Shown in pieces: positions 9,942 through 23,190 of a stretch of 23,190 nt of DNA; within the stretch, counting starts at the first letter, position 1, and each line of letters opens with the position of its first letter. The position numbers were made by a program, and so were the translations under genes. Where the stretch lies: NCBI RefSeq assembly GCF_003334815.1, contig NZ_QOWO01000050.1; one strand, 5' to 3'. The notes below the pieces were generated by a model. It saw nothing but the letters and a program-made list of their open reading frames with translations, searched no databases and was not told where the DNA came from. Source of the DNA: Escherichia coli (lineage in GTDB: Bacteria > Pseudomonadota > Gammaproteobacteria > Enterobacterales > Enterobacteriaceae).

Positions 9942-10820
9942 ATGAAACTGGGATTTATTGGCTTAGGCATTATGGGTACACCGATGGCCATTAATCTGGC
10001 GCGTGCCGGTCATCAATTACATGTCACGACCATTGGACCGGTTGCTGATGAATTACTGTCACTGGGTGCCGTCAGTGTTGAAACTGCTCGCCAGGTAACG
10101 GAAGCATCGGACATCATTTTTATTATGGTGCCGGACACACCTCAGGTTGAAGAAGTTCTGTTCGGTGAAAATGGTTGTACCAAAGCCTCGCTGAAGGGCA
10201 AAACCATTGTTGATATGAGCTCCATTTCCCCGATTGAAACTAAGCGTTTCGCTCGTCAGGTGAATGAACTGGGCGGCGATTATCTCGATGCGCCAGTCTC
10301 CGGCGGTGAAATCGGTGCGCGTGAAGGGACGTTGTCGATTATGGTTGGCGGTGATGAAGCGGTATTTGAACGTGTTAAACCGCTGTTTGAACTGCTCGGT
10401 AAAAATATCACCCTCGTGGGCGGTAACGGCGATGGTCAAACCTGCAAAGTGGCAAATCAGATTATCGTGGCGCTCAATATTGAAGCGGTTTCTGAAGCCC
10501 TGCTATTTGCTTCAAAAGCCGGTGCGGACCCGGTACGTGTGCGCCAGGCGCTGATGGGCGGCTTTGCTTCCTCACGTATTCTGGAAGTTCATGGCGAGCG
10601 TATGATTAAACGCACCTTTAATCCGGGCTTCAAAATCGCTCTGCACCAGAAAGATCTCAACCTGGCACTGCAAAGTGCGAAAGCACTTGCGCTGAACCTG
10701 CCAAACACTGCGACCTGCCAGGAGTTATTTAATACCTGTGCGGCAAACGGTGGCAGCCAGTTGGATCACTCTGCGTTAGTGCAGGCGCTGGAATTAATGG
10801 CTAACCATAAACTGGCCTGA
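9942..10820 (+). CDS. glxR: Tartronate semialdehyde reductase (NAD-dependent 3-hydroxyacid dehydrogenase family)
   Basis: 292-aa ORF with an N-terminal Rossmann motif GFIGLGIMGTPMA; RBS AAGAGG; matches GlxR. Confidence 0.9.
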   Translation: MKLGFIGLGIMGTPMAINLARAGHQLHVTTIGPVADELLSLGAVSVETARQVTEASDIIFIMVPDTPQVEEVLFGENGCTKASLKGKTIVDMSSISPIETKRFARQVNELGGDYLDAPVSGGEIGAREGTLSIMVGGDEAVFERVKPLFELLGKNITLVGGNGDGQTCKVANQIIVALNIEAVSEALLFASKAGADPVRVRQALMGGFASSRILEVHGERMIKRTFNPGFKIALHQKDLNLALQSAKALALNLPNTATCQELFNTCAANGGSQLDHSALVQALELMANHKLA

Positions 10821-10988
10821 TACCCGCAATAAAAATGGCCGATATCAGAAAATGAATCGGCCAGCAATATTAAAAAAGAAAGCAGCCAAAGATGTTGCTT
10901 CAGTATTAAAAATAATATTTTTATTTTATTTGTTCCTCATAGCTAGATTAAAACAACGTTATTCGATACGTGAAATTAAGAGGGATTT

Positions 10989-20035: not shown

Positions 20036-21703
20036 ATGATCCACGCCTTTATTAAAAAAGGGTGTTTTCAGGATTCGGTCAGTTTAATGATTATTTCACG
20101 AAAACTCAGCGAATCAGAAAATGTTGATGATGTTTCCGTAATGATGGGTACGCCCGCCAATAAAGCGTTATTAGATACCACAGGTTTCTGGCATGACGAT
20201 TTTAATAACGCCACGCCGAACGATATTTGCGTGGCAATTCGTAGCGAAGCGGCGGATGCGGGGATCGCGCAGGCGATTATGCAGCAGCTTGAAGAGGCGC
20301 TAAAACAACTGGCGCAGGGGTCAGGCAGCAGCCAGGCGTTGACGCAGGTGCGTCGCTGGGACAGTGCCTGTCAGAAATTACCCGACGCCAGTCTGGCGCT
20401 GATTTCAGTGGCTGGCGAGTATGCGGCGGAGCTGGCGAACCAGGCGCTGGATCGCAACCTCAACGTGATGATGTTCTCCGATAACGTCACGCTGGAAGAT
20501 GAAATCCAACTTAAAAGCCGCGCGCGGGAAAAAGGCTTGCTGGTGATGGGGCCGGACTGCGGTACGTCGATGATTGCCGGCACGCCGCTGGCTTTTGCTA
20601 ACGTGATGCCGGAAGGCAATATTGGCGTCATTGGCGCTTCCGGTACCGGGATTCAGGAACTGTGTTCGCAGATTGCGCTGGCAGGGGAGGGAATTACTCA
20701 CGCGATTGGCCTTGGCGGGCGCGACCTCAGCCGTGAAGTGGGCGGCATCAGTGCGCTGACGGCGCTGGAAATGCTCAGTGCAGACGAGAAAAGCGAAGTG
20801 CTGGCATTTGTTTCAAAACCGCCTGCCGAAGCTGTGCGTCTGAAAATTGTTAATGCCATGAAAGCAACCGGCAAACCGACGGTGGCGCTGTTTTTAGGTT
20901 ATACCCCGGCGGTGGCCCGCGACGAGAATGTCTGGTTTGCCTCCTCGCTGGATGAGGCCGCACGCCTGGCTTGCCTGCTTTCACGCGTTACGGCGCGACG
21001 TAACGCGATAACGCCTGCCAGCAGCGGATTTATTTGCGGTTTGTATACCGGCGGTACCCTGGCTGCCGAAGCGGCGGGATTACTTGCTGGACACCTTGGC
21101 GTGGAAGCCGACGATACCCATCATCACGGCATGATGCTCGACGCCGATGGTCACCAGATTATTGACCTCGGCGATGATTTCTACACCGTCGGGCGTCCCC
21201 ATCCGATGATCGACCCAGCCTTACGCAATCAGTTAATTGCCGATCTCGGCGCTAAACCGCAAGTGCGCGTATTGCTGCTTGATGTCGTGATTGGCTTCGG
21301 TGTGACCGCCGATCCTGCCGCCTCGCTGGTAAGCGCCTGGCAAAAAGCCTGTGCTGCGCGTTCAGACAATCAACCACTGTATGCCATTGCCACGGTGACA
21401 GGCACTGAACGTGACCCGCAATGCCGCTCGCAGCAAATCGCCACGCTGGAAGATGCGGGGATCGCGGTAGTGAGTTCGCTGCCGGAAGCCACCTTGCTGG
21501 CGGCGGCACTGATTCGTCCGCTTTCGCCTGCCACTCAGCAACACACACCGTCATTACTGGAAAACGTCGCCGTGATTAACATCGGATTACGCAGCTTTGC
21601 GCTGGAGCTACAAAGCGCCAGCAAACCGGTTGTGCATTACCAATGGTCGCCAGTCGCCGGCGGCAATAAAAAACTGGCTCGTTTATTAGAACGTTTGCAA
21701 TAA
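20036..21703 (+). CDS. fdrA: FdrA protein (CoA-binding / succinyl-CoA-synthetase-alpha-like fold family), function unresolved
   Basis: 555-aa ORF with RBS AAGGAG; N-terminus MIHAFIKKGCFQDSVSLMIISRKL matches FdrA; first gene of the fdrA-ylbE-ylbF operon. Confidence 0.88.
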   Translation: MIHAFIKKGCFQDSVSLMIISRKLSESENVDDVSVMMGTPANKALLDTTGFWHDDFNNATPNDICVAIRSEAADAGIAQAIMQQLEEALKQLAQGSGSSQALTQVRRWDSACQKLPDASLALISVAGEYAAELANQALDRNLNVMMFSDNVTLEDEIQLKSRAREKGLLVMGPDCGTSMIAGTPLAFANVMPEGNIGVIGASGTGIQELCSQIALAGEGITHAIGLGGRDLSREVGGISALTALEMLSADEKSEVLAFVSKPPAEAVRLKIVNAMKATGKPTVALFLGYTPAVARDENVWFASSLDEAARLACLLSRVTARRNAITPASSGFICGLYTGGTLAAEAAGLLAGHLGVEADDTHHHGMMLDADGHQIIDLGDDFYTVGRPHPMIDPALRNQLIADLGAKPQVRVLLLDVVIGFGVTADPAASLVSAWQKACAARSDNQPLYAIATVTGTERDPQCRSQQIATLEDAGIAVVSSLPEATLLAAALIRPLSPATQQHTPSLLENVAVINIGLRSFALELQSASKPVVHYQWSPVAGGNKKLARLLERLQ

Positions 21704-21712
21704 GGGGTTCCC

Positions 21713-22972
21713 ATGTTTACATCAGTGGCGCAAGCCAATGCTGCGGTTATCGAACAAATTCGTCGCGCTCGTCCACACTGGCTGGATGTGCAACCGGCTT
21801 CTTCACTTATCAGCGAACTAAACCAGGGCAAAACACTGCTTCACGCCGGGCCGCCAATGCGCTGGCAGGAGATGACCGGACCTATGAAAGGGGCGTGCGT
21901 GGGCGCATGTCTGTTCGAAGGTTGGGCGAAAGATGAAGCGCAGGCGCTGGCAATACTGGAGCAGGGGGAAGTGAACTTCATTCCTTGTCACCATGTGAAT
22001 GCCGTCGGGCCAATGGGCGGTATTACTTCTGCCAGTATGCCGATGCTGGTGGTCGAGAACGTGACCGACGGCAACCGGGCGTACTGCAACCTCAACGAAG
22101 GTATCGGCAAAGTGATGCGTTTTGGCGCTTATGGCGAAGATGTCCTGACTCGCCATCGCTGGATGCGCGATGTGTTAATGCCAGTATTAAGCGCGGCGCT
22201 GGGGCGCATGGAGCACGGTATCGATCTCACGGCGATGATGGCGCAGGGCATTACCATGGGCGATGAGTTCCATCAACGCAATATTGCTTCCTCAGCACTG
22301 TTAATGCGTACGCTGGCCCCACAAATTGCTCGCCTCGATCATGATAAACAGCACATTGCGGAAGTGATGGATTTCCTCAGCGTGACCGATCAGTTCTTCC
22401 TCAACCTCGCGATGGCCTACTGCAAGGCGGCGATGGATGCTGGCGCGATGATCCGCGCAGGCAGCATCGTTACGGCTATGACCCGCAACGGCAATATGTT
22501 CGGGATTCGGGTAAGCGGGCTGGGTGAACGCTGGTTTACTGCGCCTGTAAACACTCCGCAAGGTCTGTTTTTCACCGGCTTCTCGCAGGAGCAGGCGAAC
22601 CCGGATATGGGCGATAGCGCGATTACCGAAACCTTTGGTATCGGAGGTGCGGCAATGATCGCAGCGCCTGGCGTAACGCGCTTTGTCGGTGCGGGTGGCA
22701 TGGAAGCGGCCAGGGCGGTATCTGAAGAGATGGCGGAAATTTACCTTGAACGCAATATGCAGTTGCAGATCCCAAGCTGGGATTTTCAGGGCGCCTGCCT
22801 GGGACTGGACATTCGTCGCGTGGTAGAAACCGGTATTACGCCACTCATCAATACCGGTATCGCCCATAAAGAGGCGGGGATCGGGCAGATTGGCGCAGGC
22901 ACCGTGCGGGCACCGCTGGCGTGTTTTGAACAGGCGCTGGAAGCACTGGCTGAAAGCATGGGGATTGGTTGA
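21713..22972 (+). CDS. ylbE: DUF1116-family protein YlbE, intact 419 aa
   Basis: ORF starts 10 nt after the fdrA stop with RBS AAGGGG; continuous 419-aa frame with no frameshift in this window. Confidence 0.85.
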
Positions 22973-22982
22973 GGAACGCACA

Positions 22983-23135
22983 ATGACGATCATCCATCCT
23001 CTGCTTGCCAGTAGTAGCGCACCGAATTATCGCCAGTCCTGGCGGTTAGCGGGAGTGTGGCGACGGGCGATTAACCTGATGACGGAAAGCGGCGAACTGT
23101 TAACGCTGCATCGGGTGATGCTGCCAACTTACTGA
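22983..23135 (+). pseudogene. ylbF: ylbF 5' fragment (carbamoyltransferase-like protein of the fdrA operon) disrupted by an IS1 insertion after about 44 codons
   Basis: ATG at 22983 with RBS GAGGAA 11 nt after the ylbE stop. Native-looking N-terminus [43 protein letters not shown], then the frame runs into IS1 sequence and terminates at TGA 23133-23135 inside the IS1 inverted repeat. Confidence 0.6.
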
Positions 23136-23190
23136 TTTAGCGTATGATGGTGTTTTTGAGGTGCTCCAGTGGCTTCTGTTTCTATCAGCT
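23114..23190 (+). mobile_element. insA: IS1 left end (terminal inverted repeat plus the start of insA); element continues beyond the window
   Basis: Sequence GGTGATGCTGCCAACTTACTGATTTAG(C)GTATGATGGTGTTTTTGAGGTGCTCCAGTGGCTTCTGTTTCTATCAGCT matches the IS1 left end as I recall it, with one mismatch. GTGGCTTCTGTTTCTATCAGC at ~23169 encodes MASVSIS, the InsA N-terminus. Confidence 0.8.

Follow-up and report, generated by a model that had tools for sequence, protein, structure and literature searches.

The gene ylbF (allH) in the Escherichia coli DNA analysed here is broken at codon 44, and the sequence beyond the break is the left end of IS1. We consider it highly probable that an IS1A-family element of the yjiC-type isoform is joined to ylbF by its left inverted repeat (IRL), between nucleotides 131 and 132 of the gene. 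The chances that the 3′ part of ylbF follows directly after the element in the source genome are about even.

The junction in ylbF and its recurrence

The window, which is the whole stretch of 23,190 nt that was analysed, shares about 100% identity with the allantoin region in many complete E. coli genomes. These relatives include ML35 (over 23 kb), CP8-3_Sichuan, UMNF18, and strain 300709, and the comparison with CP8-3_Sichuan gave 4 mismatches in 23,113 nt. Following the annotation of CP8-3_Sichuan, the gene order is rhsD core, ybbC, an orphan Rhs fragment, ylbG (a pseudogene), mnmH, allS, allA, allR, gcl, hyi, glxR, allW, allB, ybbY, glxK, allE, allC, and allD (minus strand), and then fdrA/allF, ylbE/allG, and the start of ylbF/allH. 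Both genes preceding ylbF are intact according to their open reading frames and the annotation of the collinear genome, namely fdrA/allF at 20036–21703 (plus strand, 555 aa) and ylbE/allG at 21713–22972 (plus strand, 419 aa). We take ylbE of K-12 MG1655 to be a frameshifted pseudogene; in the window, its 419-codon frame is intact.

Near the left end, a 252-bp internal repeat with 83% identity (112–363 and 1308–1559) connects the end of the rhsD core to the downstream orphan Rhs fragment, with ybbC between the copies. This is the usual arrangement of an Rhs main gene and an orphan toxin. Two complete genomes, CH459 and CFS3292, match the 23-kb allantoin region in two pieces, as they carry an extra 1.2–1.3 kb inside it and are otherwise identical. 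The extra DNA probably represents other IS insertions.

The ylbF start codon ATG lies at 22983, and native ylbF extends on the plus strand to 23113, i.e., over nucleotides 1–131 of 816, comprising 43 full codons and two bases of codon 44. This remnant is 100% identical to complete genomes (positions 1–164 of the query 22950–23190). The same holds for annotated ylbF, and the remnant lies downstream of intact fdrA and ylbE in the allFGHK operon. In the pairwise alignment with the intact gene, the window reads ...AACGCTGCATCG and then diverges totally, with the divergence starting exactly after ...CTGCATCG, where the intact gene goes on with TAAGGGTAGTGG... The junction is therefore CTGCATCG joined to GGTGATGC. 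IS1 supplies the third base of codon 44, which changes CGT to CGG and still encodes Arg. The ylbF frame (ORF 22890..23135) reads MTII...LTLHR over 44 codons, continues with VMLPTY, and ends at the TGA at 23133–23135 (plus strand). The truncated AllH thus comprises 50 aa, of which 44 are native and the last six are VMLPTY, and the product is annotated as CAM9147962.1. A reading made from the sequence only had placed an IS1 insertion about 44 codons into ylbF and had the ylbF frame running into the element and terminating there. The alignment to intact ylbF sets the boundary at codon 44 and bears out both statements. A native allelic variant of ylbF at 23114–23190 was rejected: intact ylbF goes on with ...CATCGTAAGGGTAGTGG..., there is no similarity past 23113, and the 77-mer is an exact IS1 sequence.

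When 5,426 complete E. coli genomes were searched, none matched across the junction. The truncated product of 50 aa, looked up by exact identity, was found in two records, the draft assembly GCA_965212685.1 and a Logan contig shared by seven runs (locus L004), both of which are 100% identical to the window, with the IS1 bases included. A SKESA-type contig of GCA_021722305.1 (L025) likewise matches the window at 100% identity and stops 1 nt short of the junction; there are two similar places besides. A scan of JGI metagenome contigs for the left junction gave zero matches. The sequence-only reading had called the insertion strain-specific. Its absence from the complete genomes and its recurrence in the draft and the Logan contig fit this and show the event to be lineage-specific.

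Both ends of the window fall in repeats. The left end (1–900) is inside the multi-copy Rhs core, which occurs at a median of 3 places per genome, and the right end holds exactly 77 nt of multi-copy IS1. The window looks like one whole short-read contig assembled with k = 77 and bounded by these two repeats, which would explain why it stops 77 nt into the element. Such an end is also what an assembly artefact could produce, i.e., a chimeric contig end in which an IS1 k-mer was glued to intact ylbF, since exactly 77 nt of a repeat are included before the sequence stops, as would occur at a node of a de Bruijn graph. We regard this explanation as very improbable. An independent NCBI assembly and the Logan contig common to seven runs contain exactly this junction, a third assembly set breaks at the same base, and contig ends of this kind require reads across the junction. 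Since independent datasets share the identical junction, it is real and belongs to one lineage rather than to one assembly.

Codons 43–45 of ylbF are also a place where many metagenome and Logan contigs start or stop (L019–L024, L026–L027, L029, L031, L034, L036–L040). Apparently, this happens because in mixed E. coli populations two common alleles, CGT AAG and CGG CAG, give rise to a bubble. Contig ends at these codons alone do not indicate an IS. One ENA metagenome contig, NODE_4083 (L007 1–700), is a chimera in which a foreign high-G+C gene is fused to ylbF at GGAGGATGGGTG, with a low coverage of 3.8x.

The IS1 end and its isoform

Positions 23114–23190 (plus strand) correspond to positions 1–77 of the 768-bp IS1, an IS1A-family element of the yjiC-type isoform. 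The element has the same orientation as ylbF and is joined by its left end. IRL (23 bp, GGTGATGCTGCCAACTTACTGAT) occupies 23114–23136 on the plus strand and is identical to IRL of K-12 IS1A; it pairs with the right inverted repeat (IRR) in GCA_965212685.1 at 18 of 23 positions. A consensus scan on the identical sequence of GCA_965212685.1 found a promoter-like site at 23121–23148 (plus strand), consisting of CTGCCA, a 16-nt spacer, and TATGAT. By its position, we take this site to be the IS1 promoter pIRL. The start of insA follows at 23169–23190 (plus strand, 22 nt; IS1 position 56) with GTG, six further codons, and one base (V A S V S I S).

A search with the 77-mer retrieved IS1 copies from 8,314 records in 4,309 genomes (E = 1e-31). 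In 260 of these records the copy is identical, and most of the others have one mismatch, which rules out a chance match. The same 77 nt are the first 77 nt of full 768-bp IS1 elements in GCA_965212685.1 and ML35. Alignment to IS1 copies hence agrees with the earlier identification of the last 77 nt as the IS1 left inverted repeat and the beginning of insA.

T28C: Compared with K-12 IS1A (NC_000913.3), 76 of 77 positions of the window are identical, and the sole difference is T28C at window position 23141. The full element in GCA_965212685.1 is identical to K-12 IS1A at 764 of 768 positions and differs by T28C, G103A, A262T, and C677T. C677T results in S208L in InsAB′, whereas InsA is unchanged and IRL, IRR, and the A6C frameshift site are the same. 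The C at 23141 falls in the spacer of the promoter-like CTGCCA-16-TATGAT site. An extended −10 effect was considered and rejected, as the TG is out of register with the TATGAT hexamer, and there is no reason to assign a functional meaning to T28C. From the single mismatch, the sequence-only reading had suggested an IS1 variant. The mismatch is real and marks a minority isoform, but the novelty was overstated: the element is 99.5% identical to IS1A, exact copies are common, and the isoform with its four SNPs is an already known minority member of the IS1A family.

Many complete genomes carry exact copies of the isoform, in most cases at yjiC (ML35, H10407, ATCC 8739, SE15, and others). The yjiC-adjacent IS1 of ML35 is identical to the ylbF-joined element of GCA_965212685.1 at 768 of 768 positions, and so also over the 77 nt of the window. 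It lies at a different locus from the ylbF copy and is flanked by a clean 9-bp duplication, GAATTATAT. The yjiC copy is a plausible donor of the copy in ylbF. If the window ends where a k = 77 contig ended, at least two IS1 copies with C at position 28 should be present in the source genome, which agrees with one resident copy, expected at yjiC-uxuR, and a second one in ylbF.

Sequence beyond the element

Within the window, there is no IS1 right end, target duplication, or ylbF 3′ part. The only assembly that reads through the element is GCA_965212685.1. Its contig (locus L003, 181 kb) has the same ylbF junction, the left 10.2 kb are identical to the window, and a complete IS1 of 768 bp occupies 10132–10899. 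This element encodes InsA of 91 aa, carries the frameshift site TTAAAAAAC at position 305, and encodes InsAB′ of 232 aa, which matches Pfam PF03811, PF12759, and PF03400 (Zn_ribbon_InsA, HTH_Tnp_IS1, and DDE_Tnp_IS1). Together with IRL in the window, the length, IRR (18/23), insA/insB′, the frameshift site, and the Pfam domains found in GCA_965212685.1 identify the element as IS1.

The right end of this IS1 abuts CTGAATTTCG..., at about codon 45 of a gene for an ECSE_1600-family autotransporter beside lsrK. The right flank reads CTGAATTTCGTTG... and is not ylbF. It comprises the first ~134 nt of the autotransporter gene on the minus strand, which encode an ESPR signal peptide (L003 10900–11033), followed by the promoter region of that gene, lsrK, lsrR, and lsrACDBFG; the flank sequence on the lsrK side is CTGAATTTCGTTGTCAG. 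No flanking duplication of 8–9 bp was found in GCA_965212685.1, where the left flank is GCTGCATCG and the right flank is CTGAATTTC. The absent duplication argues against a simple insertion as assembled, not against the identity of the element as IS1. The sequence-only reading had proposed to extend the sequence by about 800 bp in search of the IS1 right end and a duplication of this size. In GCA_965212685.1, the one assembly that allows it, the extension delivered the complete element, but then the autotransporter gene and lsrK instead of ylbF, and no duplication.

The event probably started with the transposition of the resident yjiC-type IS1 copy into ylbF. IS1 usually makes 9-bp target duplications. 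The expected duplication would be that of GCTGCATCG, and the predicted target site is 23105–23113, as judged from the junction and the usual duplication length; this nonamer is not duplicated in GCA_965212685.1. For a simple insertion, the right junction is predicted to read ...GGAGTCATTACC + (GCTGCATCG) + TAAGGGTAGTGG. Put differently, the last 77 nt of IS1 end in ...CTATCAATAAGTTGGAGTCATTACC, and with a 9-bp duplication, the predicted continuation is GCTGCATCGTAAGGGTAGTGG. The composition of the target nonamer counts against a simple insertion, since it is G+C-rich (6/9) and the usual target preference of IS1 is A+T-rich.

The predicted right junction with duplications of 2–14 bp gave zero matches in JGI metagenome contigs. 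Exact look-ups of the ylbF 3′ products that would be expected beside an IS1 end were designed for 217 aa (GTG start), 235 aa (TTG start inside IRR), 240 aa (edge-partial), and 230, 229, and 228 aa (partials), and none was found in an IS1 context. The 217-aa look-up returned only point-mutant or chimeric metagenome contigs, and the cluster of this product mixes YlbE and YlbF fragments. Matches of 229/228 aa and of 43/44 aa were rejected as IS junctions because the metagenome contigs behind them are interrupted at the polymorphic CGT-AAG site or at neighbouring bases. As an exact product match is needed, these negative look-ups are weak evidence.

One way to account for the missing 3′ part is a real rearrangement, in which, as in the assembly GCA_965212685.1, IS1 connects the 5′ part of ylbF with the autotransporter/lsrK region close to the terminus. 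The event would be multi-step and of megabase scale, would place the allantoin region beside the lsr (autoinducer-2) region, and would leave the ylbF 3′ part at another IS1 copy. We hold this as a tentative possibility, clearly short of an even chance. It draws on the 181-kb contig, which reads from the ylbF 5′ part through the 768-bp IS1 into the autotransporter 5′ end, lsrK, lsrR, and lsrACDBFG without a target duplication and matches the window identically over its left 10.2 kb, and on the exact look-ups, in which an IS1-adjacent ylbF 3′ product is not on record. Against it stands the layout of collinear genomes. Strain 300709 has ylbF at 0.777 Mb and the autotransporter flank 1.03 Mb away at 1.809 Mb, each on the plus strand, and a single event connecting them would be a deletion of about 1 Mb with many essential genes. 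A deletion of ~1 Mb across many essential genes is inviable, so a single-step deletion of 1.03 Mb was rejected. A single inversion was rejected as well because the strand topology is of the deletion type and not of the inversion type. Given this topology, at least two IS1–IS1 recombination events, e.g., overlapping inversions, would be needed. Moreover, GCA_965212685.1 looks like a short-read assembly, and its contig also ends inside rhsD; a link assembled through a multi-copy repeat of 768 bp therefore carries little weight.

The autotransporter 5′ region is itself a hot spot of IS1, so a second, independent copy there together with a misjoin is plausible. One IS1 copy in ylbF and another in the autotransporter gene, in direct orientation to each other, would then be present in the lineage, and the wrong flanks would have been joined by the assembler. 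In support of this, at least 16 complete genomes have IS1 inside the 660-bp flank, 22 have it within a few hundred bases of the GCA_965212685.1 site, and one further genome has IS1 at about codon 8 of the autotransporter gene. A separate simple IS1 insertion in the autotransporter gene should leave a remainder product of 1769 aa, for which the exact look-up gave no match. For a 1760-aa remainder product, apart from ordinary genomes, the look-up yielded a single, unrelated IS1 insertion near codon 8. The autotransporter 5′ end and promoter beside lsrK (L003 10900–11033, L041 9123–9256) are a recurrent IS1 target in dozens of complete genomes, at several positions.

IS1 is also known to generate adjacent deletions. 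An insertion in ylbF followed by such a deletion could have taken out the 3′ part of ylbF, perhaps along with ybcF, purK, and purE, which would leave nearby DNA on the right side of the element. That no IS1-adjacent ylbF 3′ product was found in the collection speaks for this course of events, although the look-ups are weak here as well because an exact product match is required. The only read-through shows a distant locus and not nearby DNA, and a deletion could not pass lpxH and cysS, 3–5 kb downstream, which we assume to be essential. Hence, we consider an adjacent deletion improbable.

When genes are annotated, an IS end found at the edge of a contig stands for a broken gene and does not prove a simple insertion. 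If the link to lsrK is true, it would document a large rearrangement bounded by IS1, of a kind known in IS-rich E. coli and Shigella.

Loss of AllH and comparable alleles

Only 44 of 271 AllH codons remain, and the Pfam AllH domain (PF11392) is located in the missing C-terminal 217 aa. A Pfam search with the 50-aa product gave no match to the AllH domain or any other; thus, the remnant is a pseudogene fragment. The earlier claim that ylbF is inactivated holds on these grounds. Three genes, fdrA, ylbE, and ylbF, renamed allF, allG, and allH, jointly code for oxamic transcarbamylase (Kim and Kim 2024, PMC11326118). They form an operon with allK/ybcF, which is the last gene of allFGHK (PMC11326118). 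Because AllH is cut to 44 of 271 codons with its domain missing and allF and allG are intact, the allele should be null for the oxamic transcarbamylase step. The lineage would lose the anaerobic branch in which AllFGH convert oxalurate to oxamate and carbamoyl phosphate, and ureidoglycolate would be diverted to the glyoxylate/oxalate route.

Polarity of the element could reach only allK/ybcF. IS1 insertions are classically polar, and in intact genomes, there is a 4-nt overlap between ylbF and ybcF. The element would terminate or uncouple the transcription and translation of this single downstream gene, and a reduced expression of allK is therefore likely if allK is still downstream.

An engineered counterpart is the ΔallH (ΔylbF) strain, which on 20 mM allantoin formed 1.2 mM oxamate versus 17.7 mM in the wild type and in which oxalate rose from 2.4 to 10.4 mM (Kim and Kim 2024, PMC11326118). 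AllH is lost alike in both cases, and the expected phenotype of the IS1 allele is less oxamate and more oxalate. The ΔallH strain is an engineered deletion in the K-12 background, whereas the allele described here is a natural IS disruption that may also lower allK expression.

K45*: In another lineage, a nonsense allele (AAG to TAG; GCA_040040525.1 and related contigs; L015 10130–10135, also L016–L018) truncates AllH at the same 44 residues. The C-terminal 217-aa AllH domain is likewise detached, being either untranslated or separately translated, and gene callers give products of 44 and 217 aa. Unlike the IS1 allele, K45* is a point mutation in another ylbF background without a mobile element, and no transcriptional polarity is expected. 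The 44-aa product occurs in 49 contigs, some of which are contig-end truncations rather than the nonsense allele. As K45* alleles exist besides the IS1 allele, natural allH nulls arise repeatedly.

The element is known and identical to existing copies, and the case is a lineage-specific loss-of-function allele of an already characterised gene. Its significance beyond strain annotation is small. The lineage is predicted to be unable to run the anaerobic ATP-yielding branch of allantoin degradation (AllFGH, then AllK), and it would offer a natural allH null for studies of this recently elucidated pathway.
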